Positions 2,923-19,308 of a stretch of 58,005 nucleotides of DNA are shown here, piece after piece. The stretch spans positions 1-58,005 of the IMG/VR virus record IMGVR_UViG_3300032213_002204. One strand, given 5' to 3'. Numbering within the stretch: position 1 is the first letter of the stretch; each line of letters begins with the position of its first letter. A model generated the notes under the pieces. That model did no database searches, had not been told where the DNA came from, and saw only the letters and a program-made list of their open reading frames with translations. Origin of the DNA: a virus (lineage: Duplodnaviria; Caudoviricetes). The position numbers and the translations under genes were made by a program.

Positions 2923-2999
2923 GCTTCCGTAGCTCAGCAGGATAGAGCATCGGACTTCTAATCCGCAGGTCGTACGTTCGAATCGTACCGGGAGCGCCA
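2923..2999 (+). tRNA. tRNA-Arg(TCT), CCA encoded
   Basis: acceptor GCTTCCG/CGGGAGC, anticodon loop CT-TCT-AA, GTTCGAATC T-loop. Confidence 0.95.
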
Positions 3000-3286
3000 T
3001 GACACTTATACACTTAGACATAGCTATTGAAAATAGCACTGAAGTAAGACTAGGAGACATTCGTCAATGGATGAAGGAAGTGGACAAGTTTAACTTGCCC
3101 AATGACTATCCAGTATACGAATGTGCTTTAGCACTAGTCGTCGAAATACCAGAGCATAACATCATTCCATCGGAATGCATGGAATGCCCTCCAGAACAAG
3201 CTAATCATGATGTACTCATTGTATCTCATGATTGCGTCAATCCCGTTAACAATCTAGCCCAGGCATATGACCAGGCTATTGTATAA
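2999..3286 (+). CDS. hypothetical protein; ATG overlaps the tRNA-Arg CCA
   Basis: 95 aa ORF with a CMEC motif. Confidence 0.6.
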
Positions 3287-3372
3287 CAAAAAATATGAAA
3301 TATTTAAATTTCACCATAACTAAACAACCCTATCATTAATCGTATGCTAGTCTTAAGATTAGCATCAAAAGA

Positions 3373-3481
3373 GTTAATTAGTTTCCCGTGAGTTCTACTT
3401 GCCCCCCATGTAAAACTCGCAGTGAAAGTTTAGCCTCCTTTTAACTACACTGCTTTGGTCTCCAAGCGGGAACTGATTAGC
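3373..3481 (+). ncRNA. candidate structured RNA (4-way junction, C-rich loops)
   Basis: closing stem GTTAATTAGTTTCCCG/CGGGAACTGATTAGC encloses three hairpins in an ORF-free gap. Confidence 0.5.
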
Positions 3482-3522
3482 ATTATTCAGTTCACTAATA
3501 AAGGTGGACTGAAAGGACAATC

Positions 3523-3771
3523 ATGAATGATCTAACTTTAATGGAATCTGAAGCTGACGTCTACAAGGCCATCAGCAAATTAATGGATTTCTCTAAAACT
3601 TTAACTGACACCGTTCACCTCTTAAACTTTTCAAGTAAAGAGGAGGAGTCTGCAAAGTTCAGAAATCAATTCTATGAAGTTTTATGTAGCATTCACGAGG
3701 CTCAATTGTCAACAATTAAGCTATTCGAAATGCTCTGCATCGCACATGGAAATCCTCTGTCAAGATCTTAA
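3523..3771 (+). CDS. hypothetical protein
   Basis: GAAAGGA SD; 82 aa. Confidence 0.6.
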   Translation: MNDLTLMESEADVYKAISKLMDFSKTLTDTVHLLNFSSKEEESAKFRNQFYEVLCSIHEAQLSTIKLFEMLCIAHGNPLSRS

Positions 3772-3930
3772 AAATGTTGTACATACAAATTTATACATGT
3801 TGAACCCTTTACATACATAATATTATATAGGTTTGTAACCAACATGTTGCGTTATTGCATTATTATTACGTTTATTCTTTTTTTATGTTCATAAAATATA
3901 TAACTTTATATATGAAAAAATGAGGTAATC

Positions 3931-4149
3931 ATGACAAAGCAACAAAATATACAAGCATATATTGATACCATAATAGGAGGAACTGTTACAACTAAGTCGC
4001 TAGCTTTAGCAACTAGTTGTACCCTTCCTACTCTTTTAACATTTATCAGGAATAACTCTGATAGATTTAAAAAAGTCAAACATGGTACCTATCTAATACT
4101 ATCTCCATCTGTGTCTATTGACATTAATGAAGATATAAATCTCCGTTAG
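3931..4149 (+). CDS. small winged-HTH-like protein
   Basis: GAGG SD; VTTKSLA...FKKVKHGTYLI wing-like pattern. Confidence 0.45.
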   Translation: MTKQQNIQAYIDTIIGGTVTTKSLALATSCTLPTLLTFIRNNSDRFKKVKHGTYLILSPSVSIDINEDINLR

Positions 4150-4285
4150 AATTGGCACTTAGTCAATAAAAACGGTACTATATGTCTTATCGTCTAAATA
4201 AGACGGTAAGCAGGAGTGGCTGTGCATAAGCGGGCGGAACCCTTATGCCACTCATTGAAACCGATCCATTCTTACGGAGGTTAAC

Positions 4286-4447
4286 ATGTCAGATTATTTT
4301 ATGACAAATGGTTTTAAGCAGGATTTTACTAATCTTCTTAAATCTATATTATTAATCTCTAACAGGCTCGAAGACTTAACGAACGAAGTTCGTGCTCTTC
4401 GGGAGCAGAATGCAGTGGATCCTAACAAGGAGAAAACCACTGAGTAA
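4286..4447 (+). CDS. 53 aa coiled-coil hypothetical protein (not in the ORF track)
   Basis: GGAGG SD; MSDYFMTNGFKQDFTNLLKSILLISNRLEDLTNEVRALREQ... Confidence 0.6.
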   Translation: MSDYFMTNGFKQDFTNLLKSILLISNRLEDLTNEVRALREQNAVDPNKEKTTE

Positions 4448-4469
4448 ACCATTGTTACACCACCAAATA

Positions 4470-4650
4470 TGCTATACTAAGTACATGCCCCTCACGGGCA
4501 CGGGATACTAATTCCCACATGTAGCAAGGCAACTTGTGAAATGAGGAAAAACTTACCGCTGCCATAACTAGGCATGTAGTCCTTGTTTCGCAACCTGCGA
4601 TATACACTACTTGGAAGTTCCAAGGAGTGCTTACCGAAAGGAGCGAACCA
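4470..4650 (+). promoter_or_regulatory. extended -10 promoter plus structured ~165 nt 5' leader of the transglycosylase genes
   Basis: TGCTATACT at 4470-4478, then a run of hairpins including GCAA and GAAA tetraloops; the last one overlaps the SD. Confidence 0.5.
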
Positions 4651-5220
4651 ATGCAATTTAGGTTCATTAACATAATCAAGCAATTAAGAAACGATAAGAC
4701 TACTCTCGTCGCTTTCTTAAGTGTCCTAAGCATACTACTCATTACTCTGTTGACATCTTGTGGCAACAAAGTAGAAAGTAGTCAACCACCAATAACAGTA
4801 ACTGTCACTACAACTGTTCCAGTTGTTACAACGGTTCCTGTTCCCGAAACTACTTCGGCACCAACTACAACAATGCCTGATTTATCTGGCGTTGACTGGG
4901 TTGCTCTTGCAAGAGAGCAATATGGCAAGTGTGGCGAATGGCACGATCTTGCTATCTCAGTTGGCTGGCCTGAAGAAGAATGGAAACATCTTCAGCAAGT
5001 CATCTATCGCGAGAGCAGATGTCAAGCTGAAGCTTGGAATGGTTCAGATGGTGGCTTAACCCAAATCAACAGAATCCACACTCAGTGGCTTTCTGATATG
5101 GGTTACAAGTTTCCGGACGACATGTTTGACGCAGAGAAGAATCTCACATTCGCATTTCGTTTATGGGAGACTTCTGGATGGAGACCCTGGAAATCTTCAG
5201 GATCAACATTTGGTGCTTGA
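4651..5220 (+). CDS. lytic transglycosylase (SLT/lysozyme-like) lipoprotein
   Basis: lipobox LTSC, T/P-rich linker, IYRESRC catalytic Glu, GGLTQIN, GWRPW. Confidence 0.85.
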   Translation: MQFRFINIIKQLRNDKTTLVAFLSVLSILLITLLTSCGNKVESSQPPITVTVTTTVPVVTTVPVPETTSAPTTTMPDLSGVDWVALAREQYGKCGEWHDLAISVGWPEEEWKHLQQVIYRESRCQAEAWNGSDGGLTQINRIHTQWLSDMGYKFPDDMFDAEKNLTFAFRLWETSGWRPWKSSGSTFGA

Positions 5221-5222
5221 TC

Positions 5223-5729
5223 ATGACTATCAACAAGATAGTCTCAATCATAACAGCAACATTATTGTCTGCTGTTATTCTAATCACCAATACCAATACA
5301 TCTAATGCCCAAGCCGTACAGACTACTAATCCTCCAGTTGACTTGTCTCAAGTTAATTGGACAGAATTAGGTAGACTTATTTATGGTAAATGTGGCGAAT
5401 ATCACGACCTTGCTATCCAAGCAGGATGGCCAGAATCTCAGTGGCCTACACTGAGTAAAGTCATGTATCGTGAATCTCGCTGCAATACATTATCCTTCAA
5501 TAAGTCAGACCCTAATGGGGGTAGTCGTGGCCTTATCCAGATCAATGGATTCTGGTGTAGAAAAAATCGTTACACTCCCAATGGTTGGCTACAAGACAAG
5601 TCCATCCTCAACACATGTGACGATCTATTTGATCCACTAACTAACCTGCGTGCAGGGTGGTCTATGTGGCAATATAGTCAGGAACATAATCGTTGCGGAT
5701 GGAGACCATGGGCAACTAGATGTAAGTAA
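5223..5729 (+). CDS. secreted lytic transglycosylase, paralogue of the upstream gene
   Basis: signal peptide; YGKCGEYHDLA..GWP, MYRESRC, GLIQING, GWRPW. Confidence 0.85.
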   Translation: MTINKIVSIITATLLSAVILITNTNTSNAQAVQTTNPPVDLSQVNWTELGRLIYGKCGEYHDLAIQAGWPESQWPTLSKVMYRESRCNTLSFNKSDPNGGSRGLIQINGFWCRKNRYTPNGWLQDKSILNTCDDLFDPLTNLRAGWSMWQYSQEHNRCGWRPWATRCK

Positions 5730-5760
5730 AATTTTTAACAAATAATTATACCCAACAAAG

Positions 5761-5797
5761 AGGGGAGCTAGTTCCGAAAGGGACTGCTCCCCTTTTC
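5761..5797 (+). terminator. intrinsic terminator
   Basis: AGGGGAGC/GCTCCCCT stem, GAAA loop, T-run. Confidence 0.75.
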
Positions 5798-5801
5798 GTT
5801 A

Positions 5802-5812
5802 TTCATACAAAA
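5802..5812 (+). promoter_or_regulatory. recurring intergenic motif TTCATACAAAA (also at 6279, 8865, 10457, 41102)
   Basis: five exact intergenic copies, all in the same orientation. Confidence 0.6.
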
Positions 5813-5838
5813 AAAAACTAGAAAGGTTCTACAATATT

Positions 5839-6270
5839 ATGTTTGCTTTCGTCATGATCTTAGCCTTTGCTTCTGCTGTAGTTGAGCTTACCTTTGCTTC
5901 CAAATTTCCAGTTTGGAGAAAAGCAGCTAAACGCAACAAAGCTATTAACCTTGCAATCTCAATTGCTCTTTCATTTGTCTTAGGTATTATGTTTGGTGCA
6001 GCTGGTCTTATCACCATGGCTGCTGCAATCATTTCTACCGTACTTGTTATTCCAGGTTATGCCTTTCTTGAATGGGCATATGATTCCCCACAGGCTCAGA
6101 CTCGTGGAGGTAATCAACTGAAGTATTTCTCAGACAAAACTAAGGAAGTTGTCTCTGACACTTTCAAAATTATTTACAAAATTCTCAGAGTTATTACTTT
6201 CCCAATTTGGGGAAGTCGAATTGCTCGAGATAAATATCGCAATTTCAAATTACGCACCCCACAAAACTAG
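5839..6270 (+). CDS. membrane protein
   Basis: about three hydrophobic helices; GAAAGG SD. Confidence 0.65.
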   Translation: MFAFVMILAFASAVVELTFASKFPVWRKAAKRNKAINLAISIALSFVLGIMFGAAGLITMAAAIISTVLVIPGYAFLEWAYDSPQAQTRGGNQLKYFSDKTKEVVSDTFKIIYKILRVITFPIWGSRIARDKYRNFKLRTPQN

Positions 6271-6317
6271 CTTTATTGTTCATACAAAAAAGCAGGTAAC
6301 TGCCTTAAGGAGGCTTT

Positions 6318-8864
6318 ATGGAAGAAATCTATACACCAAAAGTTCGCTTACAAGCAGAAGTCGATGGACCTTTACGCGGTGGCGAACGCTACCAATTTGG
6401 TTTCTATGACGCTGGTACCCTGCGTCAATCGATTGACACTATTGGGTTCGGAGGGTATAAAGTTTATACCATTCCGGTTCCCAATACTGAACTTCAGTTT
6501 CAAAAAGTTTCCGAAATGATTAATGACCCTAGCGTTCAATATGCTCTCGTAGATAAAGACAAAATTGTTTTTGTTGTTATCGAAAACTCTCCAGGTTGGA
6601 TGAGCTCTATTAATGCTATGGGTTATGAAGTCCATTCAGGACCCAAAACTAATAAAAGATTGAAATCATTCCATCGTCCAACTTTGTTGAACGGTCACTT
6701 TGATAATCTTAATATTAAAATTGTTGAGCCTACTGATTATTCTCGTTATAACTTCTTTGATGAGAATGATGACTGGGGCGTATCGTCCGAATACCGCAAT
6801 CCTGAAGTAATCGACAGATTGCTTGATGGCGGTTTCGTTATCAGTCGTCGTCTTATCCAGGAATCCGTAAAGAATATTCCCTTCCATACTCCCGATAATT
6901 CTCTCGAGGATCATGATTATTATTATGATCCTCGTCTTTATCAGAATATGGTTCAGGAACTTCTTAACTCTACTGTAGTTAATGCCCGCATTATTTACAA
7001 AGATGGATTCCTCAAAGGCAATGCATTCGTAGCAGATCTGCCAGAAGGCATTGACGTTATTACGGCTCGTACTAATATCAAACAGGAAATCACATATCCT
7101 AATGGTTTTCGCTTTCAAGCAGAACCTCAAGGCCCTAAGTCTAGAGTCATCACTGACGATCAGACTGTTATCAATCTTCCTAAACTATTCCGTAAGAGCG
7201 ACATGGAAATGTGGCTCCGCGAAGAGTACAAGAAGATGTTCGAGATGGCAACATCTGGAAATCTTCTAACTAATTGGAAGTATATCTATCAGAGAATGTG
7301 GCGTGAAACAGATACTGCTGAAGACAATGAAGCAAGAGCACGCATGGCATATGTGGGCTATCGCTGGACTGCAGCAGGATTTAGCATTACACAATCTCCT
7401 TGGCTCTTTGAGACAATCTCTACTAGCCACGCTAAGCCTTTGCAGAAGGCAATCATAGTTCCATGTTCAGTCTATGAACAGATCATTCCCGAAAGTCTTG
7501 CTCGCATGGCCGGACATGACCTATTCATTGAAGAGGGAACTATTGTTCGTAGTAACCAACTTGGTTGCCACGTTGTCAATGACATTGACTGGCTGGAAAT
7601 GTATGAAAGCCATGGTGGAATGGATGAGGATGACTTCTTCAAGTTGTTCTATCGAACAATGCAAGGTGGCGAATTCGACACCGAAAAAGTAGTCATCGTT
7701 GCCCGTTCTCCAAATGGCTATGGTGAGTATTCTATCTTCCGCTATGTTGAAGGCTCTTGGGCTCCAACATGGCACATGGCAGATGGAACTCCCGTTATGT
7801 TTCCCGAAGTAAATGGCAGATCATGGCCTAAGCGACTAAGCGAAGTAATTGCTTCAGGCAAAGTAATCCATAAGGGATTACCTTCTGACTCACTTCCTAA
7901 GCCAAAGCGTTCTGGCCCATATAGTCAAGCTGATGTCATTCGTGATATCAAGATTGCTATGGCTGGCGGAAACGTTGGCGGATTTGTTAATGCGGCAATG
8001 GCTCACAGTATGGTGATTTCTAAGCACCGTCCAGAACAACTGTGTACATTGGAAACCGCAATTGACAAGTGCATCAACCCTGATGACACTGCTGACGTTA
8101 TTGCTATCGATGAAGAAGCTAGATTAATGATGCGTGAAGTAATTAGTTCAGGCAAACCTATTGATCAAGACTTCTGGTATTCCCGCGGAATGAAGCGCTT
8201 TCTTAAGCGTGGTGAAACTGTTGAACTTTATGATGGTAAAATTAGTCAATTATATACTCTATGTAATGACTATTATCATCGTTATGTAAACAGCATTCGT
8301 CAATGGTCACAGCAAAATGCTCGACCTGACGATATTGTGCATAAACTTGGTGCACGTTTACGTCATCAAGCTTATCCAGTTTTACGTCAATTCCGCATGG
8401 ACCTATACAATACCAACTCCACTGAAGTAACAAAGAGTTCTGGAGCTATCCAGCGTAACTCTTGGGAAAACTTGTATGTAGGAATTGCAAATAAGATTAC
8501 ATCATATGAACGCATTATTGATTCATATGATTTTGTTATTGCTCTCTATTCCGAATCAATTAATAATCCCACTTCATCTGGAAAGATTACTGATCAGATC
8601 GTAATGAACAGATTCGTATTCCCATATCTTGAAGAAGCTCTTCAGTATTATGGGTTAGCCGCATCTGTTAAACGCGAATTGAACAATAATCGTTTACGTA
8701 TTGTTAATGAGCGTGTGACTAGTTGGATTTGGCAGGATTCTTCTGGCGAAGACGTAGAGTATACTGATCCGCTTGCTTTCCAAGCAGCGCACGCAGAGGA
8801 CTCTCCGATCATCTTCGTCAGTGCAAAACCTGCTCCAAGAAAACTTACACAATCGTTATACTGA
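6318..8864 (+). CDS. single-subunit two-barrel RNA polymerase-like protein (YonO / eukaryotic-RdRP-like)
   Basis: LLDGGFVIS, ARII...FLKGNAFV...NIK, GGMDEDD, ARSPN, NVGGFVN and TAIDK correspond to RdRP/YonO-family motifs; AAGGAGG SD. Confidence 0.7.
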   Translation: MEEIYTPKVRLQAEVDGPLRGGERYQFGFYDAGTLRQSIDTIGFGGYKVYTIPVPNTELQFQKVSEMINDPSVQYALVDKDKIVFVVIENSPGWMSSINAMGYEVHSGPKTNKRLKSFHRPTLLNGHFDNLNIKIVEPTDYSRYNFFDENDDWGVSSEYRNPEVIDRLLDGGFVISRRLIQESVKNIPFHTPDNSLEDHDYYYDPRLYQNMVQELLNSTVVNARIIYKDGFLKGNAFVADLPEGIDVITARTNIKQEITYPNGFRFQAEPQGPKSRVITDDQTVINLPKLFRKSDMEMWLREEYKKMFEMATSGNLLTNWKYIYQRMWRETDTAEDNEARARMAYVGYRWTAAGFSITQSPWLFETISTSHAKPLQKAIIVPCSVYEQIIPESLARMAGHDLFIEEGTIVRSNQLGCHVVNDIDWLEMYESHGGMDEDDFFKLFYRTMQGGEFDTEKVVIVARSPNGYGEYSIFRYVEGSWAPTWHMADGTPVMFPEVNGRSWPKRLSEVIASGKVIHKGLPSDSLPKPKRSGPYSQADVIRDIKIAMAGGNVGGFVNAAMAHSMVISKHRPEQLCTLETAIDKCINPDDTADVIAIDEEARLMMREVISSGKPIDQDFWYSRGMKRFLKRGETVELYDGKISQLYTLCNDYYHRYVNSIRQWSQQNARPDDIVHKLGARLRHQAYPVLRQFRMDLYNTNSTEVTKSSGAIQRNSWENLYVGIANKITSYERIIDSYDFVIALYSESINNPTSSGKITDQIVMNRFVFPYLEEALQYYGLAASVKRELNNNRLRIVNERVTSWIWQDSSGEDVEYTDPLAFQAAHAEDSPIIFVSAKPAPRKLTQSLY

Positions 8865-8876
8865 TTCATACAAAAT

Positions 8877-8918
8877 TGTGGGGGGTCGGCCCTATCCGAC
8901 CTCCCACATTCTATTTCT
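8877..8918 (+). terminator. GC-rich hairpin, probable terminator
   Basis: TGTGGGGGGTCGG/CCGACCTCCCACA stem followed by a T-rich tract. Confidence 0.6.
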
Positions 8919-8936
8919 TAAAAAGGTAACATTAAC

Positions 8937-9473
8937 ATGCAACCTATTAACAAATTTTTATATACAAATTTTAATTGTCCTTATCATACCTTTTCTGGTC
9001 TTACTTCTATAACTAAACAACACTTGCTCCAAGCTGGTTATTTAAATTTTTACGAATGCATTACTGCATCTCTCGATAGTTTTGACTACTACCGTATTCC
9101 TGGATCATCTTATCGTTCTATCTTAAAATGTTTATCAGTTTATAACTTACAAATTGGAATGTCTTCTCAAGAACTTTCCCATGCATTACGTAAACATTCA
9201 AGAGATCACTATAACAATAAAATAATTCCACGTATTCGTGAAGATATTCGTCAAGACAATCTCCGCAAAGAAGAACTTATTCGCCACCAAGAATATCGTA
9301 AAACTGTTTTAGATATTCTTTATTTAGAGTTTACTTATGGCTCTAAGCTTCTTGAGGAAAATTTAGATTCTGATACTCTTTATGAATATTTTAATTATGT
9401 TCATAAATACAGAATATATCATCCTTCTAACTATGATTATTTAACTTATAATCGTCAATATAATTGTTGTTAA
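8937..9473 (+). CDS. protein with an RNAP alpha-CTD-like N-terminal domain (putative)
   Basis: LTSITKQHLLQAGY...SYRSILKCLSVYNLQIGM aligns by eye with the alpha-CTD LTVRSANCL...SLTEIKDVLASRGLSLGM. Confidence 0.4.
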   Translation: MQPINKFLYTNFNCPYHTFSGLTSITKQHLLQAGYLNFYECITASLDSFDYYRIPGSSYRSILKCLSVYNLQIGMSSQELSHALRKHSRDHYNNKIIPRIREDIRQDNLRKEELIRHQEYRKTVLDILYLEFTYGSKLLEENLDSDTLYEYFNYVHKYRIYHPSNYDYLTYNRQYNCC

Positions 9474-9492
9474 TAAATAAAAGGAAATTGTA

Positions 9493-10383: not shown

Positions 10384-10402
10384 CCACATCAATTAATATA
10401 CT

Positions 10403-10452: not shown

Positions 10453-10499
10453 ATAGTTCATACAAAAATGCAATATTATAAATTAAGAGAGGACATCTT

Positions 10500-11108: not shown

Positions 11109-11109
11109 A

Positions 11110-11589
11110 ATGAACTTTGAAAATTATATACCCACTAACTTTGATCATGATAAAATGAACGCTTTTAAATTTCTATATCTCTATCGTAGAAAGCAAGCTA
11201 TTCTTGTAGATCTTTTAAAGGTTTGTGACTTAACAAATCTTGAAGATCTTCAAAATAAAAAACCATTCATTAGATCCTACCAGTATATCCAACGCGAAAC
11301 TGGAATGTCTGATGAAGAATTAAGCGAAGCAATATCTATTGGTCTCTGGATTGATGAATACATTAGCTTATCTGAAATGTCTGAAGAAGAATTTCTTAAG
11401 ACTACTTCGGAACTAGAAGCTGATTATGATATTCCTGAAGATATTACTGAAGATCTTCGGGAGCTTCATGAGCAAATTTCTGAAATGCTCCAACATAAAA
11501 ATCAAGATAAAGAAATCTTTAAGGAAATTATAAATGAAAATTATAACGATCAAGAAAAATGGCCAAACGGCCTCCCTCCGTACTCGTAA
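11110..11589 (+). CDS. acidic hypothetical protein
   Basis: 159 aa ORF. Confidence 0.6.
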   Translation: MNFENYIPTNFDHDKMNAFKFLYLYRRKQAILVDLLKVCDLTNLEDLQNKKPFIRSYQYIQRETGMSDEELSEAISIGLWIDEYISLSEMSEEEFLKTTSELEADYDIPEDITEDLRELHEQISEMLQHKNQDKEIFKEIINENYNDQEKWPNGLPPYS

Positions 11590-11737
11590 TAGAGTTAATG
11601 ATAATGGTCCTGATTTTGAGTTTATTGAAAATTCAAATCGACCGGGATCCATTCTACTAAAAAGCCTTAAAACAAATTGGCTTGGATGGCTCCCTGAAAA
11701 TGAAATTATTATATCAAAAAAACAGGAGGTCTTATGA
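11534..11737 (+). CDS. hypothetical protein
   Basis: AAGGA SD; coupled to the next gene. Confidence 0.5.
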   Translation: MKIITIKKNGQTASLRTRNRVNDNGPDFEFIENSNRPGSILLKSLKTNWLGWLPENEIIISKKQEVL

Positions 11738-12054: not shown

Positions 12055-12058
12055 CACT

Positions 12059-12655
12059 ATGACCTACATACTTCAAGACATTAAAGATTTATGCCCAGTT
12101 ATCGATGAAGAACTTCTTGTTCTTCGCGGTACACTGGAAGAAAATGTTTCTCATGGTTACGATTATCGTCCCATGGTTACTTTCTTTAAGTTCCCAGATG
12201 TAAGACAGTGTGCTGTCGTACCTAATCCTCAAGTGGAATTTACAGATACTTTAGCAAGAATTGCAGAAGCATTATATCTTTATCCTGCGTTGGACTCCAG
12301 CTATGCTGTAGTCTCTCTTTTATCTGAATTACATGATGATGATAATAATAAAACCGCAGAATGCCTGAACGTATTTGTTCTAGAAGAGGATAGTGCGCAT
12401 ATGATTAATATGCCCTATACTGTTTCTGATAAAAACGTAAACTGGCTATATGATAAATTCAGTTCTGTTAATGTATCCAATCATGAATATGAAGGAATCT
12501 CAAAGGAAATGATTAACATGTTTTACATGTTCACACACCTAGAGCATCCTCTATACACCGTTCAAGAAATCTTATCTTTCCTTGGAATTTCTGGCGCTGG
12601 CGTCCATGTATTCCCCGGTGTTAATGTTTCTTATTTTAGCGTGGCCCACTCATGA
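12059..12655 (+). CDS. hypothetical protein
   Basis: 198 aa ORF. Confidence 0.6.
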   Translation: MTYILQDIKDLCPVIDEELLVLRGTLEENVSHGYDYRPMVTFFKFPDVRQCAVVPNPQVEFTDTLARIAEALYLYPALDSSYAVVSLLSELHDDDNNKTAECLNVFVLEEDSAHMINMPYTVSDKNVNWLYDKFSSVNVSNHEYEGISKEMINMFYMFTHLEHPLYTVQEILSFLGISGAGVHVFPGVNVSYFSVAHS

Positions 12656-12844
12656 ACAATAAAAAACAAAAAGACTACACTGCAATTACACATTGCGGTT
12701 CTATCAAGTATAAAAAAAGCCATTACATCAAAGCTACTATATCTTCAGATTCTCAATTTGAAGATAAACTAGAAAAGCTTATGTCTTGCGAACATACTCA
12801 AATTAATATAGAATACGTATAACATATCCTGAAAGGGGGACTAC

Positions 12845-14518
12845 ATGTTATCTTTAAGACCTTATCAAGAAGAAGCATTAAAATCAATTAATGATTTTTC
12901 AGAAAAAGGAATTAATAAACAGCTTGTAGTCCTTCCAACAGGCGCAGGTAAAACTGTTATATTCTCACACCTCCCTCAGTTCAAAAAAGACAGTCTCCCT
13001 ATGCTTGTCTTAGCACACCGTGCAGAACTATTATATCAAGCTAAGGAAAAAATTAGCTGGTCTAATCCTGAACTTGATATTCAAATCGAGCAAGCAGATA
13101 ACATAGCAGGATACTGCGATGTCGTGGTTGCCTCAGTCCCAACTTTGGGACGAGCAGAATCAGAACGTATCTTAAAATATCCAAAAGATTATTTTAAATC
13201 TATAGTTATTGATGAAGCACACCACGCTGCTGCTCCTACATATCGGCGCATTTTAGATTACTTTAATGCACCATTTGTACTCGGAGTTACAGCTACTCCT
13301 CAAAGATCTGACAACACTCGCTTGACAGATGTCTTTGATGAAATAGTATACTATAAGACAATACAAGATCTTATCGAGGATGGTTACTTATGTACATTAG
13401 TCGGTTATCGAATCAAGACAGATACAGATATATCTGGAGTTGCAACTAATGAAGGAGATTACGTTGCGTCTCAGCTGGAAGATGCTATTGATACCCCTGA
13501 GCGTAATGCTCACATTGTTGCTGCTTATAATAGTCTGGTTCCAGAATCCAAAGCAATTGTATTCTGCGCGGGTGTCAAACACGCGAACAACTTGGCCACA
13601 TCCTTTGCGTCCGCGCAAATAAAAACGGAGGTAATCCTAGGTGCTACTGACTCAGATTCTCGTAGAGATATTCTGGCGCGTTTCCAAATGGGTACAACAA
13701 AAGTTCTCATCAATGTTGGCGTTCTTACGGAAGGGTTCGACGAACCAACCGTAGAGACTATCATTCTAGCTAGACCAACTAGATCTACTCTATTGTATAC
13801 ACAGATTGTTGGTCGAGGTACTAGACTTCACGAAGGGAAGCCGCATTGTACCGTCCTAGACTTTGCAGACACCACAAGAGGAAAGAAGCCTATTGGCCTT
13901 CCTTCTCTTCTAGGCCTGCCTCCCGAATTCGATTTACAGGGACAAGACCTTATCGAAGTAGCTAAAAAATACAAGGAGCTCGAGGACTATTGTCCAGGCG
14001 AAGCCGTTCGTGTATTAGACCCTAATGATATAGAGTTAGCTTATAAGAGAATTAATCTCTTCATGCCACCCCCACCAAATGAATTTGTTCAACAATATTC
14101 TAGATTTGTGTGGGCTGAAGTTGCCGAAAACGACTATCATCTTGGCGTGGATAATTATAATTCATTTAGAATATACACTGACACACTAGGTAGATGGGTC
14201 GTTGAACATCGTCAGCGTACTTCAGATGGAGTTCAAGTAAAACTTTTAGGACATCCTGAAGATATGCGTGATGCATTTGTCCGTAGTGACAGATGGATCA
14301 TGGCAAAGTTTGATACCAATCTTATTGAATCAGACGCTGCCTGGCGTGCAGATGGTCCAACTGACGCTCAAAGAAAACTCTTAAAGCGTATCGGTGTACC
14401 CGTTACTTCTGATATGACTAAGGGAACTGCTAGTCAAATTATTAGCAAATACTATGAAGCTAATCCTAGACCAGCATGGTTAGATAAAAGAATTAAAACA
14501 ACACGCTCTAAGTGGTAA
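12845..14518 (+). CDS. SF2 DEAD/DEAH-box helicase (Irc3/ResIII-like)
   Basis: LRPYQ, PTGAGKT, IDEAHH, TATP, LTEGFD, QIVGRGTR. Confidence 0.95.
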   Translation: MLSLRPYQEEALKSINDFSEKGINKQLVVLPTGAGKTVIFSHLPQFKKDSLPMLVLAHRAELLYQAKEKISWSNPELDIQIEQADNIAGYCDVVVASVPTLGRAESERILKYPKDYFKSIVIDEAHHAAAPTYRRILDYFNAPFVLGVTATPQRSDNTRLTDVFDEIVYYKTIQDLIEDGYLCTLVGYRIKTDTDISGVATNEGDYVASQLEDAIDTPERNAHIVAAYNSLVPESKAIVFCAGVKHANNLATSFASAQIKTEVILGATDSDSRRDILARFQMGTTKVLINVGVLTEGFDEPTVETIILARPTRSTLLYTQIVGRGTRLHEGKPHCTVLDFADTTRGKKPIGLPSLLGLPPEFDLQGQDLIEVAKKYKELEDYCPGEAVRVLDPNDIELAYKRINLFMPPPPNEFVQQYSRFVWAEVAENDYHLGVDNYNSFRIYTDTLGRWVVEHRQRTSDGVQVKLLGHPEDMRDAFVRSDRWIMAKFDTNLIESDAAWRADGPTDAQRKLLKRIGVPVTSDMTKGTASQIISKYYEANPRPAWLDKRIKTTRSKW

Positions 14519-14538
14519 TTTGATATACTTGTTATATC

Positions 14539-15030
14539 ATGACCATTACTTATAGCCATAATAAATATTCTTCAGTCCATCCTAAAATTACTCCCGAGTA
14601 TTATAAAGCTTTACCAACTCACAAACCCTTTGTTAAAGCCTTATACATATCCTGTAGTGATGGCTATGTTCCATATGCCATTACTGATTCCCCTAATAAT
14701 ATTATTCAATTAATATTTCAAGATAAACAAGTTAGAGTATTAAACCCTAATCCTTATTATCATGTTTATTTTGATTATCTTGAGCAGTCTCAAATAAGTA
14801 GATTTAACTTTACCGCCTCTACATTGCTTCGTAGCAGTTACCTAACTTCTTTAGGAATTGTTACTACTGATGCTATATATGGAGACGTTCTTATTTTTGG
14901 CTCTTATGATTATAATCTTCATACTATTGATGAAGAAGATCATTCTGTTCCCTACGAAGTAGTTGAACAGGTATTGCGAATAGATGCACAGAAATCTATG
15001 TATCAAAAAACATTACCTGAAATTATATAA
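14539..15030 (+). CDS. hypothetical protein (weakly DUF3846-like)
   Basis: IYGDVLIFG...SVP; TGATATACT at 14521 just upstream. Confidence 0.5.
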   Translation: MTITYSHNKYSSVHPKITPEYYKALPTHKPFVKALYISCSDGYVPYAITDSPNNIIQLIFQDKQVRVLNPNPYYHVYFDYLEQSQISRFNFTASTLLRSSYLTSLGIVTTDAIYGDVLIFGSYDYNLHTIDEEDHSVPYEVVEQVLRIDAQKSMYQKTLPEII

Positions 15031-15106
15031 TAAATAATATTTATAATAGAATATACAAAGACGTAGGGGGAGAAACACAACAACAATAAAATAGAAGGTT
15101 AAAATT

Positions 15107-15370
15107 ATGTCATTAGCAATCGTCATCGGTTCTGAACCAGAGCACATCGCAAACATTGAAGATACTGTAAGTATCTTAAAATTTACTAGAACTCTTGTAT
15201 CAGACGGCGCAATTAGTTTACCAAATGTATATATGAATGATTCTCCAGCTCAATTTGATTCTGATTATCTTTCAAAAATTATTGATTGGTACACAGGAAT
15301 TTATACACTACTTACTGATCCCTCAGCTATAATGAGTGATCAAGAAGATTTTGATAGCTTCAGCGTATAA
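15107..15370 (+). CDS. hypothetical protein
   Basis: GAAGG SD. Confidence 0.6.
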   Translation: MSLAIVIGSEPEHIANIEDTVSILKFTRTLVSDGAISLPNVYMNDSPAQFDSDYLSKIIDWYTGIYTLLTDPSAIMSDQEDFDSFSV

Positions 15371-15398
15371 CTCATTATATTGCGATGAACAGCATCAG

Positions 15399-15484
15399 GC
15401 CCTGGTGGCGGAATAGGCAGACGCGGGGGGCTTAAACCCCCCTTCCTTACCAAAGGAGTATGGGTTCAAGTCCCATCTTGGGCA
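15399..15484 (+). tRNA. tRNA-Leu(TAA), no CCA
   Basis: GGCGGAATAGGCAGACGC D-arm, GGGGG/CCCCC anticodon stem, long variable arm; one T-T mismatch in the acceptor stem. Confidence 0.9.
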
Positions 15485-15487
15485 CTA

Positions 15488-15537
15488 GGGTGACTCAGAG
15501 TTCTTACCCCTTTCTGACTCTGGGTCATCCGCTTTTT
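15488..15537 (+). terminator. long hairpin with T-run after tRNA-Leu
   Basis: GGGTGACTCAGAGT/ACTCTGGGTCATCC stem, pyrimidine-rich loop. Confidence 0.55.
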
Positions 15538-15569
15538 AAAGTAAATATCACAACCGTAAAGGAAATATC

Positions 15570-15866
15570 ATGAATGATAATAATTTAGAAGAACAATCAG
15601 GACCATTAACAAATCAGGAAATTGCATACTTTTTGCGTCACAAAGAAGTTACCGACACTGATTCACCAAAACAGTCTCAAATGGAAATGGCCGAAGATCT
15701 TATAAATGAGATATGTGCTGACATTGACGAGCTAGAAGAACTTGATCCAATGTTTTTATTGGACATGCTTGGAATTCTTGGACTATCTTTAACTGTTAGC
15801 TCCGAAGCCTCTGAAGCTTTTGTTGAAGAATGCAGAAAAATGCGCAAAACTGCAAAAAGCGTTTAA
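15570..15866 (+). CDS. acidic hypothetical protein
   Basis: AAAGGA SD. Confidence 0.6.
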   Translation: MNDNNLEEQSGPLTNQEIAYFLRHKEVTDTDSPKQSQMEMAEDLINEICADIDELEELDPMFLLDMLGILGLSLTVSSEASEAFVEECRKMRKTAKSV

Positions 15867-15887
15867 GCTTTAAAGTTAATTACGTCC

Positions 15888-15964
15888 GCCTCTTTAGCTC
15901 AGCTGGTTAGAGCAGCGGACTTTTAATTCGTTGGTCCAGGGTTCGAATCCCTGAGGAGGCACCA
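15888..15964 (+). tRNA. tRNA-Lys(TTT), CCA encoded
   Basis: acceptor GCCTCTT/AGGAGGC, anticodon loop CT-TTT-AA. Confidence 0.95.
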
Positions 15965-16128
15965 TGAACAAAGCAACTATTAAACTAGTTACTGATTTAG
16001 TTGATAAAGCTCTTAATGAAATTTCAGGTAGAGAAATTGTCTCTACCGCAGAAATGACTGATCTATTACTTGATATTAGATTGCACATTATGCTTGACCA
16101 AGAGTTAACTACTCCAACTTATCAATAG
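15964..16128 (+). CDS. 54 aa hypothetical protein; ATG overlaps the tRNA-Lys CCA (not in the ORF track)
   Basis: MNKATIKLVTDLVDKALNEISGREIVSTAEMTDLLLDIRLH...; AGGAGG lies 4 nt upstream, inside the tRNA. Confidence 0.7.
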   Translation: MNKATIKLVTDLVDKALNEISGREIVSTAEMTDLLLDIRLHIMLDQELTTPTYQ

Positions 16129-16206
16129 CTTTTAAATTTAATAATAATTTTTTAGGATTAATTCTATACAGAGATATGAAATCCAAATTGATCTACATGG
16201 AGTACG

Positions 16207-16404
16207 ATGCAACCTGATTCTAATATTACCCAAGAAGAACTAGTAATAGTTGCCGAACTCCAGCAAATTCTACACAATATCAGCAATGCCCTTGATCAGT
16301 TACCTGTTCATTTAAAAGAGCATATATTATCTGATATTGAAATATTTAATCAAGAATCTCAATCTTTTAATAGTGCGTTAGATTCTCTAAATACTAAAAA
16401 CTAG
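16207..16404 (+). CDS. hypothetical protein
   Basis: GGAG SD. Confidence 0.55.
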   Translation: MQPDSNITQEELVIVAELQQILHNISNALDQLPVHLKEHILSDIEIFNQESQSFNSALDSLNTKN

Positions 16405-16489
16405 GGCAGCGGTCGTTTCGTACCACCATGCAGTAACTAACGTCAAGTGAAGTGGCCCTATCAAGGCGTGACAGTCGGAGAGACGATAT

Positions 16490-16563
16490 GGGGCGTTAGC
16501 TCAGTTGGTTAGAGCAAGGCACTCATAATGCCTGGGTCGGGGGTTCAAGTCCCTCACGCCCCA
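16490..16563 (+). tRNA. tRNA with CAT anticodon (elongator Met or Ile2), no CCA
   Basis: GGGGCGT/ACGCCCC acceptor with a paired 1-72 (so not initiator); loop CT-CAT-AA. Confidence 0.9.
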
Positions 16564-16663
16564 CTGGGTATTAATGTGAAACCCTAAAAATAAGAATGGT
16601 TAAATCAATTACGGACACATATCATTCGTATCATATTAATACCCACCTTTCAAGGAGACGAAG

Positions 16664-16795
16664 ATGTCACTCGCCAAATTTAGAAAAATCTTTAAAGGCA
16701 ATGCAGAAGTTAGTATCCCTAACCCTCCAAAGCCAACTGAGTCTAAGCCTCAGGATAATAAAGACGACGCTAAAGATAAGCCATACACAAAGTAG
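16664..16795 (+). CDS. 43 aa basic hypothetical protein (not in the ORF track)
   Basis: AAGGAG SD; MSLAKFRKIFKGNAEVSIPNPPKP... Confidence 0.55.
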   Translation: MSLAKFRKIFKGNAEVSIPNPPKPTESKPQDNKDDAKDKPYTK

Positions 16796-16915
16796 TCTAC
16801 CCTTGAAGCCATCGGGTGCTTGTCGTAAAGTAATTATTTTTTATAATCAGATTCCATTTGTGGTGAGTGTTATAAGAAGTAAAGACCTGCAGACAATACA
16901 ATTCAATGGCTTAAC

Positions 16916-16987
16916 GCCGGGTTAGCTCAGTGGTAGAGCAACGCACTTGTAATGCGTAGGTCCTCAGTTCAATCCTGAGATTCGGCT
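16916..16987 (+). tRNA. tRNA-Thr(TGT), no CCA
   Basis: GCCGGGT/ATTCGGC acceptor; ACGCA-CTTGTAA-TGCGT. Confidence 0.92.
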
Positions 16988-17110
16988 CTAGTAGTAGCTA
17001 ACATCCAGTACTCTACCAGAGATGCCGGGGCAACGTAAATCGTGTATAATGTTAGTGGACCCATATCTCCAACACGACTACTACTTTTATTCTGAAAGGA
17101 TAAATACAAA

Positions 17111-17539
17111 ATGAAAAAAATTATTATAGCCACATCTATTTTATTAACACTTACAGCTTGCGGAAGCAAGACTGTATACGTCACCAGCACTGAAGCGCCT
17201 GAGACAACAGTCAAGGTTGTCAAGACAACTGACGCACCAATTGCCACCTCACCAATGGACACTTATGCTCCGCCAGTCACATGGACAGACGAAGACGAGT
17301 TCATTGCAGACATCTACAACGAAAACACTGGCCCCATTTACCTTGAAGACCAAGACCTGATTGACACAGGATATGCCGTTTGCGAAGGATTGCGTAGTGG
17401 CATGAGTGGCTACGACGCCATTAATGCAATCACTTCATCAGCCGAAGGCAATGCTGCTGTAGAAGAACTCCTTATTAATGTTACAGCATCCGCCGTCATT
17501 AACTTTTGTCCCGAACAACAATATAAATTTAATGAATGA
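17111..17539 (+). CDS. DUF732-family lipoprotein
   Basis: lipobox LTAC; DEDEFI...GYAVCEGLRSG...AVINFCPE. Confidence 0.8.
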   Translation: MKKIIIATSILLTLTACGSKTVYVTSTEAPETTVKVVKTTDAPIATSPMDTYAPPVTWTDEDEFIADIYNENTGPIYLEDQDLIDTGYAVCEGLRSGMSGYDAINAITSSAEGNAAVEELLINVTASAVINFCPEQQYKFNE

Positions 17540-17757
17540 GAGATTTTGCAATGACCACTAGAGATACTTATGACATTTTGTCTTATGAACAAGAGCAAAA
17601 CCAGCCCGTAACTGGAATAAACATTCAAATCAATACCCTAATTGATGCAATGATTGACGCTGAAAAATGCTTGTTCCACAATAGTGACTCTAACTTAATG
17701 CCTGTCAATGATTCAATTTTGAATATAGACATTAAAGCTCAACACCCTAGAGGATAA
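17536..17757 (+). CDS. hypothetical protein
   Basis: ORF track; start uncertain. Confidence 0.4.
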   Translation: MRDFAMTTRDTYDILSYEQEQNQPVTGINIQINTLIDAMIDAEKCLFHNSDSNLMPVNDSILNIDIKAQHPRG

Positions 17758-17761
17758 TTAT

Positions 17762-18226
17762 ATGGATCCGTTATTAGATATCTTTAATTCTTTTTTGTCA
17801 GAATATACCAAAACAAATGGATGGGATAGTCCCGCTTCCGTTTGGTTCTGGGATTACGATTCTTCTCAATGGAATTCTATTGAAGAATCTTATCAGGATC
17901 CATATGATTTAATCCCAACGCTTGTCGTCCATGGCTACCATGGTGCAGCTATGTTTGTAGTCCATGGATGGGCAGCTCCCTATAGTGAATATGAATATGA
18001 TGAATATGGAGAACCCACTCGTCCATCTAAGCATCCTGAGAGAATGCGAGTTCGTTCTTTCACTTATCTCAGTGGTGAAAATATTTTAAATTCATATCAG
18101 ATTATGGGCAAACCTATTGAAGAAGTTGAAGCTGAACCCGAAGGTGCTATTATTGATAGCATCATTATTGCCATCCACAAAATGAAAAAATACTTAGCTA
18201 AGGAAGTTTACAGTGAACAAGATTGA
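17762..18226 (+). CDS. hypothetical protein
   Basis: GAGG SD; GWAAP...RPSKHPERMRVR. Confidence 0.65.
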   Translation: MDPLLDIFNSFLSEYTKTNGWDSPASVWFWDYDSSQWNSIEESYQDPYDLIPTLVVHGYHGAAMFVVHGWAAPYSEYEYDEYGEPTRPSKHPERMRVRSFTYLSGENILNSYQIMGKPIEEVEAEPEGAIIDSIIIAIHKMKKYLAKEVYSEQD

Positions 18227-18692
18227 TTCTATTTTAAATAAAATTCTTTATGCTGTTGCTGTTTTATTTTTTCTTATAGCAGCTATTATACTTTTAACTG
18301 GCTGCGCAGTTACTCAAAGTGATACAACTACTACCTTGAAACCTATGCGCCCCACCAATGTTACTGTAGTTATTACTGATCCACAAATTATTCCATCATT
18401 TTCTGGAACAGTCAATAATACTTATATTCAAACTGTTGAGTTTTTTTATCAGGGAACTCCACCAGTTTCTGATCAAGTTATTATGGAATTCGGTGAGCAA
18501 TGGTGTGATCTATTGATAGATGGCATGCAGCCCGATGATGTTATTAACAGAATCCATGAAGGCGCTATTGATAACGACGATGCTCGTATGCACTTTTCAA
18601 TTGTAAATGCTGCTATACTAGAGCTTTGTCCCAGCCAATCCCATAAGTCTGAAGAGATCGCACTTAGATCTTTTCTTCCTAAGGAACAATAA
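18213..18692 (+). CDS. DUF732-like lipoprotein
   Basis: lipobox LTGC; FGEQWCDLLIDG...AAILELCP. Confidence 0.7.
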   Translation: MNKIDSILNKILYAVAVLFFLIAAIILLTGCAVTQSDTTTTLKPMRPTNVTVVITDPQIIPSFSGTVNNTYIQTVEFFYQGTPPVSDQVIMEFGEQWCDLLIDGMQPDDVINRIHEGAIDNDDARMHFSIVNAAILELCPSQSHKSEEIALRSFLPKEQ

Positions 18693-18952
18693 TGATTATT
18701 GATTTATCCAATGATGATCCTATGATTTTAAATCAAAACCGATCTGGATTTTTATTTGATCAAAAAGGATTAGCTCATTTTTTTGATAATCTCGACTATG
18801 CAGAAGATAACGCAGAGTGGCCTGAACATACTGGACCCTTTTATCTTTTGTATTCTAATAACTCAAATTCAGTTCCCACTATGATGGGAATTGAAATTTC
18901 TGATGTTCAATCTATTACATTCAATCGAATACGTGGGCTAGAAGAAATCTAA
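18692..18952 (+). CDS. hypothetical protein
   Basis: TAATG coupling. Confidence 0.6.
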   Translation: MIIDLSNDDPMILNQNRSGFLFDQKGLAHFFDNLDYAEDNAEWPEHTGPFYLLYSNNSNSVPTMMGIEISDVQSITFNRIRGLEEI

Positions 18953-18961
18953 ACTCTTCTA

Positions 18962-19036
18962 GCCCCTGTCGTCTACCGGTTAAGACAACACTCTTATAAA
19001 GTGTTTAACGGAGTTCAACTCTCCGCGGGGGTACCA
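18962..19036 (+). tRNA. tRNA-Ile(TAT), CCA encoded
   Basis: GCCCCTG/CGGGGGT acceptor; ACACT-CTTATAA-AGTGT; CGGAG-TTCAACT-CTCCG. Confidence 0.85.
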
Positions 19037-19308
19037 TGGATCCATTACAATACTTTGATGAAGAATATTCTTCTATCAACTCTTCTATTAATAATATAAC
19101 TTCAATAGTTATTCAGTGCAATGATAATGTCTCTGAAATATTGAAAATCCAAAAAAGACTCCAAACTATATCTAACAATAAAAACATAGACTCTAAGCAG
19201 CTAAAAGAAATTTTAGATATTATATCCTCATTAGCTCAATTGTCTGGCACACTTTTGGAGTGCACTCAAAGCATTAAGTCAAACATTACTTTTGACACCA
19301 ATAATTAA
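19036..19308 (+). CDS. hypothetical protein; ATG overlaps the tRNA-Ile CCA
   Basis: 90 aa helical ORF. Confidence 0.6.
   Translation: MDPLQYFDEEYSSINSSINNITSIVIQCNDNVSEILKIQKRLQTISNNKNIDSKQLKEILDIISSLAQLSGTLLECTQSIKSNITFDTNN

Follow-up and report, generated by a model that had tools for sequence, protein, structure and literature searches.

In animal mitochondrial DNA, tRNA genes lie between same-strand ORFs with spacers of zero to a few nucleotides, and excision of the tRNAs sets the 5' ends of the mRNAs without any Shine-Dalgarno (SD) sequence, an arrangement known as tRNA punctuation. In the thrU-tufB and tyrT-tpr operons of E. coli, tRNA and protein-coding RNA are likewise carried on one primary transcript and separated by processing. 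In riboswitch expression platforms and RNA thermometers the ribosome-binding site (RBS) is occluded by RNA structure. A further related case is the t-elements of plant mitochondria, tRNA-shaped structures which are reported to set mRNA ends via the tRNA processing enzymes (PMC1920247). For Actinobacteria, three papers describe cuts inside the encoded CCA of P. acnes tRNAs that fall "always between the Cs" (PMC3848588), tRNA 3' cleavage in S. coelicolor mapped between C74 and C75 (PMC4681348), and leaderless transcripts as common (PMC4633059; PMC3848588). In mycobacteria, leaderless initiation requires an ATG or GTG at +1, which is also sufficient for it, and leadered initiation requires an SD (PMC4633059).

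The DNA analysed here, called the window, is a stretch of 58,005 nt from a virus of the Caudoviricetes (IMG/VR record IMGVR_UViG_3300032213_002204). A preliminary description had noted that exactly three of its seven tRNAs (Arg, Lys and Ile) encode CCA, that the final A is in each case the A of the next ATG, and that the purine-rich 3' acceptor strand lies 4 nt before that ATG. ARAGORN found the seven tRNAs at the coordinates given by that description, and Rfam RF00005 matched all of them with 49-71 bits against a gathering threshold of 29, the model ends coinciding with the discriminators 2996 (Arg), 15961 (Lys) and 19033 (Ile). The 7-bp acceptor stems are paired at 6-7 of 7 positions. With full cloverleaf scores above threshold, these are functional tRNA genes and not tRNA-like elements. 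The overlap was confirmed in the sequence, in which the acceptor strands can be read directly: GGGAG-CGCC-ATG (Arg), AGGAGG-CACC-ATG (Lys) and GGGGG-TACC-ATG (Ile). The features are as follows.

2923..2999, + strand: tRNA-Arg(UCU), CCA encoded (ARAGORN; Rfam 66 bits); discriminator G 2996; A76 = 2999 = A of ATG
2990..2994, + strand: GGGAG, SD-like, 3' acceptor strand of tRNA-Arg, 4 nt 5' of ATG; paired in the predicted fold; anti-SD duplex -6.6 kcal/mol
2999..3286, + strand: junction ORF95, 95 aa, Cys-rich, starting at A76 of tRNA-Arg; dN/dS 0.115 against the relative L002
15399..15485, + strand: tRNA-Leu(UAA), end A-C-T-A, without junction ORF (ARAGORN; Rfam)
15888..15964, + strand: tRNA-Lys(UUU), CCA encoded (ARAGORN; Rfam 70.8 bits); discriminator A 15961; A76 = 15964 = A of ATG
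15954..15959, + strand: AGGAGG, 3' acceptor strand of tRNA-Lys, 4 nt 5' of ATG; paired in the predicted fold; duplex -12.1 kcal/mol
15964..16128, + strand: junction ORF54, 54 aa, starting at A76 of tRNA-Lys; dN/dS 0.089 against the relative L001
16490..16564, + strand: tRNA-Met(CAU), end A-C-T-G, without junction ORF in the window; CTATG junction in 6 relatives (ARAGORN)
16916..16988, + strand: tRNA-Thr(UGU), end T-C-T-A, without junction ORF (ARAGORN)
18962..19036, + strand: tRNA-Ile(UAU), CCA encoded (ARAGORN; Rfam 54.4 bits); discriminator A 19033; A76 = 19036 = A of ATG
19027..19031, + strand: GGGGG, 3' acceptor strand of tRNA-Ile, 4 nt 5' of ATG; paired in the predicted fold; duplex -10.0 kcal/mol
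19036..19308, + strand: junction ORF90, 90 aa, starting at A76 of tRNA-Ile; dN/dS 0.03-0.17
37033..37106, + strand: tRNA-Asn(GUU), end G-C-A-C; next ORF at +22 with canonical AGGAGG (ARAGORN)

All three junction ORFs of the window are under purifying selection (dN/dS 0.03-0.17) and must therefore be expressed; none of them has an earlier in-frame start. ORF95 has homologues in L002, where it starts at +4, and in L004, and it matched no family in PHROG or Pfam. Members of the ORF54 family are found elsewhere behind a tRNA-Asn that lacks an SD-like strand, overlapping an upstream ORF, or after a canonical AAGGAG. The ORF90 junction reads CCATG in the window, L005 and L009 and CTATG in L001-L003. 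Three junction ORFs lie between two tRNAs, the second of which follows after 5, 7 and 13 nt. Over their first 40 nt, junction ORFs show less structure than the starts of other genes (mean -1.7 vs -3.3 kcal/mol; one-sided Mann-Whitney p = 0.003, on samples that are not independent).

Among 88 distinct tRNA contexts of the phage family, an ORF of at least 40 codons starts exactly 3 nt from the discriminator in 27 (19 C-T-ATG and 8 C-C-ATG). One start was found at +4, one at +6 and none at +1, +2, +5 or +7, the rest being scattered from +8, so that +3 accounts for 27 of 30 starts in the tight range from +3 to +8. Behind these junctions, at 5 tRNA species, stand 11 unrelated ORF families, and the ORF54 and Met_L010-type families are each found behind more than one tRNA, without exception at +3. 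tRNA genes here abut same-strand ORFs with no or minimal spacer, as punctuation of the mitochondrial type requires, and non-junction ORFs carry canonical SDs, e.g. at +16 and +22. In unrelated viral contigs, TG follows CCA in 7 of the 169 CCA-encoding tRNA ends listed and an ORF of at least 40 codons in 1, vs 3/3 CCA-encoding tRNAs in the window, a count that puts the CCA-ATG overlap of the preliminary description above chance. A second background set of other compact phages gave no credible junction among 223 tRNAs. The junction is supported as a real, non-random and conserved feature.

The encoded CCA, which the preliminary description took as the key feature, did not hold that place: 19 of the 27 family junctions are CTATG, and TG follows CCA (9/17) and CTA (19/38) with equal frequency. 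Position 75 is C in some close relatives and T in others, also in tRNA-Leu, which has no junction ORF, and C74 is invariant (88/88 contexts, vs 72 of 117 CCA-less tRNAs in the background sample). The claim that CCA-less tRNAs lack the overlap is true of the window, where the four of them (discriminator and C, followed by TA, TG, TA and AC) have no overlapping ORF, but it fails in the relatives, in which CCA-less (CTA) tRNAs overlap likewise and tRNA-Asn, unlike that of the window, has a junction ORF at +3 in 7 genomes. The encoded CCA is incidental to the junction. Even if the anatomy alone holds, the invariant C74, free C/T at 75 and fixed +3 register form a clear, testable sequence signature, pointing to a processing site in a hard-to-culture host group.

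We propose, with a probability of roughly 45%, that the processing of tRNA 3' ends sets free a near-leaderless mRNA for the junction ORFs. Because the conserved design (N73-C74-Y75-A76 T G) puts the start of the small protein gene on position 76 of the tRNA, tRNA and mRNA would share one transcript, with neither spacer nor free leader. The host tRNA 3'-end endonuclease would cut directly after the discriminator or after C74, giving a tRNA that ends in C74 and is finished by the host CCA-adding enzyme, and a downstream RNA that begins (C/U)AUG; the leader would measure 1 nt if the cut falls between the Cs and 2 nt if it falls after N73. Ribosomes would read this RNA in the leaderless or short-leader mode, which is robust in Actinobacteria, and tRNA and mRNA would both come from the one transcript, as with tRNA punctuation in mitochondria. 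The G-rich acceptor strands of Arg, Lys and Ile may add an SD function on unprocessed or not-yet-folded precursors, as an add-on and not as the core. The ORF families Met_L006/L426/L433 and Asn_L007/L008/L010, which include SD-less junctions, are nevertheless conserved, and such junctions are consistent with SD-free translation. The preliminary description had itself suggested a processing cut that yields a near-leaderless CCAUG mRNA; that suggestion gives the best fit to the wider family data, with co-transcription, cut site and translation mode inferred. In a fuller form, which we hold slightly more tentatively, phage tRNA genes would double as 5' processing signals, and the nuclease cut after C74 would supply a varying group of small early genes with near-leaderless mRNAs. 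The 3' ends of tRNAs would then be universal "expression sockets" that need no SD and that receive unrelated ORFs by recombination, always at +3, with output tied to tRNA maturation flux in the infected actinobacterial cell.

As to co-transcription, the tRNA-ORF junctions leave no room for a promoter in between. One metatranscriptome contig (X4, record 22) bridges tRNA-Arg and ORF95, but a contig is no proof of a single RNA and may derive from DNA. A weak candidate promoter lies upstream.

2885..2913, + strand: promoter-like site TTGAGG-17-TATACT with TG, ending 10 nt 5' of tRNA-Arg

The scan found 1 such site vs 3.9 expected by chance; a hexamer resembling TATACT/TATAAT is conserved in L002, L004 and L005. 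If the promoter is real, tRNA-Arg would be the entire 5' leader of the ORF95 mRNA.

These phages (~170-216 kb, freshwater) probably infect an actinobacterium, because they carry WhiB and DUF732 markers. DUF732 was found twice, and WhiB is present in 4/4 relatives, with Corynebacterium alone matching among 14 control genomes.

40454..40789, + strand: WhiB-like regulator, host marker for Actinobacteria (Pfam PF02467, 62.1 bits)

As in mitochondrial punctuation, the phage tRNAs abut ORFs, three ORFs are bracketed by tRNAs, and excision would set the 5' end at or near the AUG; the differences are that only some genes of a bacterial virus are involved, that processing is a proposal here, that the start codon overlaps position 76 instead of following the discriminator, and that CCA or CTA is often encoded in the phage tRNA genes. 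The E. coli mixed operons resemble the locus in that tRNA and coding RNA are co-transcribed and then split, as would be the case in the phage, but they have spacers and their own ribosome-binding sites, and no start codon overlaps the tRNA 3' end. RBS occlusion is matched by the SD-like strands of Arg, Lys and Ile, which lie beside the AUG in a stable predicted helix, except that a functional tRNA does the occluding in place of a dedicated regulator and that many junctions have no SD. The t-elements are reported to be non-functional tRNA mimics (PMC1920247), whereas the phage tRNAs reach the scores of full tRNAs (49-71 bits). The C74/C75 cleavage predicts the retained, invariant C74 and the free position 75 that are seen here, with a fragment that would start at 75; the papers concern host tRNAs of distant actinobacteria, report no downstream ORF that uses the fragment, and map the cut at CCA, not CUA (PMC3848588; PMC4681348). 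Known leaderless and short-leader mRNAs share the SD-independent AUG at or near the 5' end (PMC4633059; PMC3848588; PMC4681348). Their transcription starts at the AUG, whereas the phage 5' end would be processed, with 1-2 extra nucleotides and a 5' monophosphate; since the mycobacterial work tested a start codon at +1 only, it has to be assumed that (C/U)AUG is translated.

The G-rich acceptor strand could instead be an RBS that tRNA folding hides and maturation removes, capture by the 30S subunit before the stem closes leading to translation, so that each transcript gives tRNA or protein but not both. We consider this either-or switch unlikely. At the three window junctions taken alone an SD reading is possible, as all have good SD-like strands at a spacing used elsewhere: GGAGG with 4-nt spacing also precedes the ordinary phage genes 6318 and 11734. 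In the predicted precursor folds the SD-like strand is fully paired, with the acceptor stem closed in both MFE and centroid structures, and CCAUG and ~20 nt downstream are single-stranded; a motif at functional spacing is thus sequestered in a stable predicted helix. The claim that the acceptor stem hides the SD stands for Arg, Lys and Ile to this extent, but it does not extend to the family, in which SD-like strands occur at Arg, Ile, Lys and some Asn junctions, and 9 of the 28 junctions listed have anti-SD duplexes of -2.4 kcal/mol or weaker. None of these nine has an SD-like acceptor strand: all 6 tRNA-Met junctions give -1.7 to -2.4 kcal/mol, and those of tRNA-Asn in L007, L010 and L430 give +1.2. 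The mean duplex is stronger for junction than for non-junction tRNAs (-6.5 vs -2.8 kcal/mol, not corrected for relatedness), and in L004, where an inserted ORF displaces ORF90, the latter has its own AAGGAG and can thus be SD-driven. Against the switch, the ORF54 family follows AGGAGG (tRNA-Lys) in the window and CTCGCCA (tRNA-Asn) in L430, and in a distant subclade the tRNA-Lys of L426, which has a junction ORF, and those of L010, L428 and L430, which have none, share the acceptor strand AGGGCGC. Clear SDs are found in about half of the ordinary phage genes (47/88) with a modal spacing of 6 nt, from which SD logic predicts starts at +4 to +8, yet the observed starts are almost exclusively at +3.

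Slightly less probable still is a passive history, in which ORFs of a densely packed genome were pushed against the encoded CCA until they shared A76, C75 changed to T neutrally, and cassettes swapped at the tRNA flank inherited the register, with no regulatory meaning and with translation by any low-efficiency route. The C/T flips at position 75, the movement of ORF families between tRNAs and a mobile GIY-YIG-like ORF inserted exactly at the L004 junction would all fit, and the +3 register could be a frozen relic of the CCA overlap. Upstream ORF stops also lie near tRNA 5' ends, mostly 3-21 nt away (three overlap tRNA-Thr by 10 nt), but these distances are broadly spread, vs one sharp spike on the 3' side. 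Selection on the junction ORFs, the identical register of the 11 families and the lack of credible junctions in the other compact phages also speak against it.

Transcription starting at the A of the ATG from a promoter inside the tRNA gene, which would give a true leaderless mRNA independent of processing, of a kind common in Actinobacteria (PMC4633059; PMC3848588), is very improbable, as the region is GC-rich acceptor and T stem that differs between five tRNA species, and as a scan for a -10 element ~7 nt upstream found no promoter-like site 6-8 nt upstream of 2999, 15964 or 19036, a weak negative given the E. coli-type consensus of the scan.

If the proposed processing is right, the junctions would give the bacterial world its own counterpart of tRNA punctuation in mitochondria, would make leaderless mRNAs by RNA processing instead of transcription initiation, and would give a function to the unexplained actinobacterial "cut between the Cs"; they could also explain the presence of small ORFs among the tRNA genes of phages. 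Junction genes will be missed, or given a wrong start, by gene callers and annotation rules under which a tRNA and a CDS may not overlap. In GenBank OQ999401, one junction CDS is annotated from upstream of the tRNA and runs through the tRNA gene.

Seven tRNA genes were identified in the window with ARAGORN, all on the + strand, and all seven are supported by Rfam (49-71 bits), with the model ends falling at the discriminators (N73). The preliminary description held that only tRNA-Arg, tRNA-Lys and tRNA-Ile encode CCA and that the final A is in each case the A of the next ORF's ATG, which ARAGORN, Rfam and the sequence itself confirm:

2923-2999, + strand: tRNA-Arg(UCU) with encoded CCA (ARAGORN, Rfam)
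2999-3286, + strand: ORF95, 95 aa, behind tRNA-Arg, its ATG opening at the A of CCA
15888-15964, + strand: tRNA-Lys(UUU) with encoded CCA (ARAGORN, Rfam)
15964-16128, + strand: ORF54, 54 aa, behind tRNA-Lys, its ATG opening at the A of CCA
18962-19036, + strand: tRNA-Ile(UAU) with encoded CCA (ARAGORN, Rfam)
19036-19308, + strand: ORF90, 90 aa, behind tRNA-Ile, its ATG opening at the A of CCA

The remaining four tRNAs have the discriminator and a C followed by non-CA bases, and no ORF overlaps them. The three junctions read GGGAG-CGCC-ATG (Arg), AGGAGG-CACC-ATG (Lys) and GGGGG-TACC-ATG (Ile), the purine-rich 3' acceptor strand ending 4 nt before the ATG as first written. Compared with their homologues in related phages, the junction ORFs have dN/dS values of 0.03-0.17, the differences cluster at third codon positions, and the N-termini align from Met1; by these comparisons all three are real genes starting at the junction ATG, and none of them has a match in PHROGs or Pfam. 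In the related locus L004 the CCA of tRNA-Ile and the ORF90 homologue are separated by exactly one inserted 97-aa ORF (16885-17190), in which a GIY-YIG-like motif was seen by eye only. The homologue retains the same ATG and is now preceded by an AAGGAG brought by the inserted ORF. Placed exactly at the junction and supplying this AAGGAG, the insertion resembles a mobile element that targets this site.

The window (36.8% G+C) encodes a helicase and a tail fibre. Searched against GenBank phage DNA, the three junction regions gave tRNA-level matches only, or none, and no close isolate. A helicase search of IMG/VR yielded ten related loci (L001-L010) at 69-99% identity, on contigs of up to 216 kb, and more distant ones (L425-L430 and L433) at 60-66%. 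Three genes bear on the host:

40454-40789: WhiB regulator (Pfam)
17111-17539: first DUF732 protein of the tRNA region, also matching a lipoprotein lipid-attachment signal
18213-18692: second DUF732 protein of the tRNA region

DUF732 is typical of mycobacteria and other actinobacteria. WhiB is present in four of four near-complete relatives, and among 14 control genomes Corynebacterium alone matches. The window's glutathione peroxidase had one match among genome contigs (32%, a Ruminococcaceae MAG), which is uninformative on the host. Five metatranscriptome runs contain small parts of the window; four, labelled as freshwater or lake water, were aligned, with contigs 90-99% alike, these being assembled contigs without molecule starts or ends that cannot show processing. 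We take the window and its relatives to form a family of large actinobacterial phages from fresh water, with the host inferred from the markers. In the genomes of two relatives, weak tRNA-like matches of 30.9 bits (G002:183125-183200 and G004:85864-85939) have a WhiB gene within about 40 nt downstream and may be degenerate tRNAs or tRNA-like elements.

A tRNA census of the window and 47 family loci, with identical contexts removed and three tRNAs near locus ends skipped, gave 88 contexts. Position 74 is C in 88/88, and the triplet at positions 74-76 is CTA in 38, CCA in 17 and another C-initial triplet in 33. An ORF of at least 40 codons starts at exactly +3, counted from the discriminator, in 27 of the 88 contexts (19 CTATG, 8 CCATG). 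Other offsets are rare, with +4 once, +6 once, and then a scatter from +8 up. TG follows CCA in 9/17 contexts and CTA in 19/38, so that its association is equal for both triplets; on these counts CCA is incidental to the junction, and the junction is family-wide. At tRNA-Ile, position 75 differs even between the window (CCA) and L001 (CTA; 99% helicase identity), and the same C/T flip is seen at tRNA-Leu, where there is no junction ORF. The junction ORFs belong to 11 families unrelated by BLAST behind five tRNA species (Arg, Asn, Ile, Lys, Met). Two families occur behind more than one species: the ORF54 family follows tRNA-Lys in the window and tRNA-Asn in L430, and the family found behind tRNA-Met in L010 follows tRNA-Lys in L426. 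Relatives of ORF54 elsewhere have a canonical AAGGAG or overlap an upstream ORF, and the next tRNA begins 5, 7 or 13 nt after three of the junction ORFs.

The +3 junction is strongly enriched in the present family, but CCATG shows no excess in phage tRNAs at large. Among the matches listed from unrelated viral contigs, at least 169 tRNA ends encode CCA, with TG next in 7 and a long ORF in 1; as 7/169 is about the expectation from base composition, a general enrichment is rejected. An ATG-ORF at +3 was found in 2 of at least 223 listed tRNAs sampled irrespective of CCA, both discarded as artefacts in which the ORF reads across neighbouring tRNA genes on a contig of 61% G+C. In the same sample 72/117 CCA-less tRNAs have C74, and 8 of the at least 223 listed have CTA. 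Elsewhere, 119 CCATG junctions were collected, 27 of them with at least 40 open codons, an uncurated set in which at least some are spurious. A looser form of the junction is present in DSL-LC01, a metagenome-assembled actinophage in GenBank (OQ999401; locus L306), in which an ORF annotated as a CDS opens 4 nt past the discriminator of tRNA-Arg. Another annotated CDS of that phage (11502-11987) begins upstream of tRNA-Pro (11523-11597) and reads through it; its true start is likely the ATG at 11601, 5 nt past the discriminator. PMC10611076 gives the actinobacterial host of DSL-LC01 as a prediction. In the annotation tables of two soil Gordonia phages no CDS adjoins any tRNA 3' end, and the design is thus not general to actinophages.

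We favour, as an inference, a punctuation-like model in which tRNA 3' processing would free a near-leaderless mRNA. A P. acnes 5'-end mapping study (PMC3848588) describes endonucleolytic cuts within encoded CCA, "always between the Cs", and contains the authors' suggestion that the CCA-adding enzyme repairs the cut tRNA end. A cut after C74 in the phage transcript would free downstream RNA beginning (C/U)AUG, and would account for both the invariant C74 and the C/T freedom at position 75. One transcript could then provide a tRNA and an mRNA, assuming that a leader of 1-2 nt with a 5' monophosphate is translated. Four relatives, whose records are possibly incomplete, showed neither a CCA-adding enzyme (PF01743) nor an RNase Z-type fold (PF12706); on that result maturation must rely on host enzymes. 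Compared with other gene starts, the initial 40 nt of the junction ORFs are richer in AU and form less structure, which is weak support for the model as the samples are not independent. Under this model the phage junctions, which bear a distinctive N73-C-Y-ATG signature, would work like mitochondrial tRNA punctuation combined with actinobacterial leaderless translation. Open-access full text (PMC, bioRxiv) yielded no account of tRNA punctuation in a phage, and none of a start codon that overlaps the 3' end of a tRNA.

One alternative is the either-or switch first proposed, in which folding of the tRNA hides a Shine-Dalgarno (SD) sequence in the acceptor strand. By a crude motif test, 47/88 genes have an SD, the modal spacing being 6 nt, and GGAGG plus 4 nt precedes the ordinary genes at 6318 and 11734; the phage thus uses SDs, and the three window junctions look like usable ribosome-binding sites. 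Predicted precursor folds keep the acceptor stem closed there, with N73-CCAUG and about 20 nt downstream single-stranded, so that for the window the strand is indeed predicted to be paired. The proposal does not extend to the family: the SD-like strand is absent at all six tRNA-Met junctions and at the Asn junctions of L007, L010 and L430, where the anti-SD duplex is +1.2 to -2.4 kcal/mol vs -6 to -12 kcal/mol at the Arg, Ile, Lys and remaining Asn junctions, and the ORFs behind these SD-less junctions are conserved nonetheless. Moreover, with an SD in the acceptor strand, starts between +4 and +8 would be permitted and indeed favoured, and the starts lie at +3. The switch is possible for the window three and cannot be the general rule. 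ORFs that start farther behind tRNAs, at +16 and +22, are preceded by an AAGGAG or AGGAGG of their own, and the sequences suggest two discrete modes, a start exactly at +3 without leader or a normal SD-bearing leader. In the punctuation-like model, the G-rich acceptor strand might serve as an optional second route at the Arg, Lys and Ile junctions. A G-U wobble asymmetry (U in the 5' strand, G in the 3' strand) might have pointed to selection for an SD, but was discarded as evidence because C-to-T opposite G is tolerated in any helix.

The +3 spike, sharp on the 3' side in contrast to a broad spread of distances on the tRNA 5' side, is not accounted for by passive genome compaction and a frozen overlap with CCA, and neither is the register shared by 11 unrelated ORF families. 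An internal promoter inside the tRNA gene is not supported, as scans of the window tRNAs with an E. coli-type consensus found none.

Several neighbouring features of the window were noted. Immediately after tRNA-Leu lies a 13-bp hairpin (15488-15541), kept in L001-L005 and L009 with compensatory changes at four pairs, whose pyrimidine-rich loop has an anti-SD-like sequence (CCCCTTTC / CTCCTTTC); it is followed by a terminator-like T-run in the window and L001-L003, and by tRNA-Lys instead in L004, L005 and L009. A 109-aa ORF (16596-16925; also in L002 and L003) extends 10 nt into tRNA-Thr (16916-16988), its TAG stop occupying tRNA positions 8-10 and mirroring the 3' junction overlap. The non-coding stretch after tRNA-Thr (16989-17110) opens with CTAGTAGTAGC / CTAAGACAGTAGC, kept in 9/9 relatives, after which comes a hairpin-like segment that varies; a small RNA or a processing signal may lie here. 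Adjacent genes at 22819-27214 encode a Prok-JAB domain protein (556 aa; 24.3 bits, just under the 25-bit cut-off), a ThiF/E1-like protein (253 aa) and an AAA+ ATPase (536 aa), which by their domain matches could form a phage ubiquitin-like conjugation or deconjugation module. Nine genes of 2OG-Fe(II) oxygenase families, seven above the curated cut-off, are spread over both strands at 41703-53525, and among them lie the glutathione peroxidase gene (50378-50998, - strand) and a gene for a DUF6065 protein.
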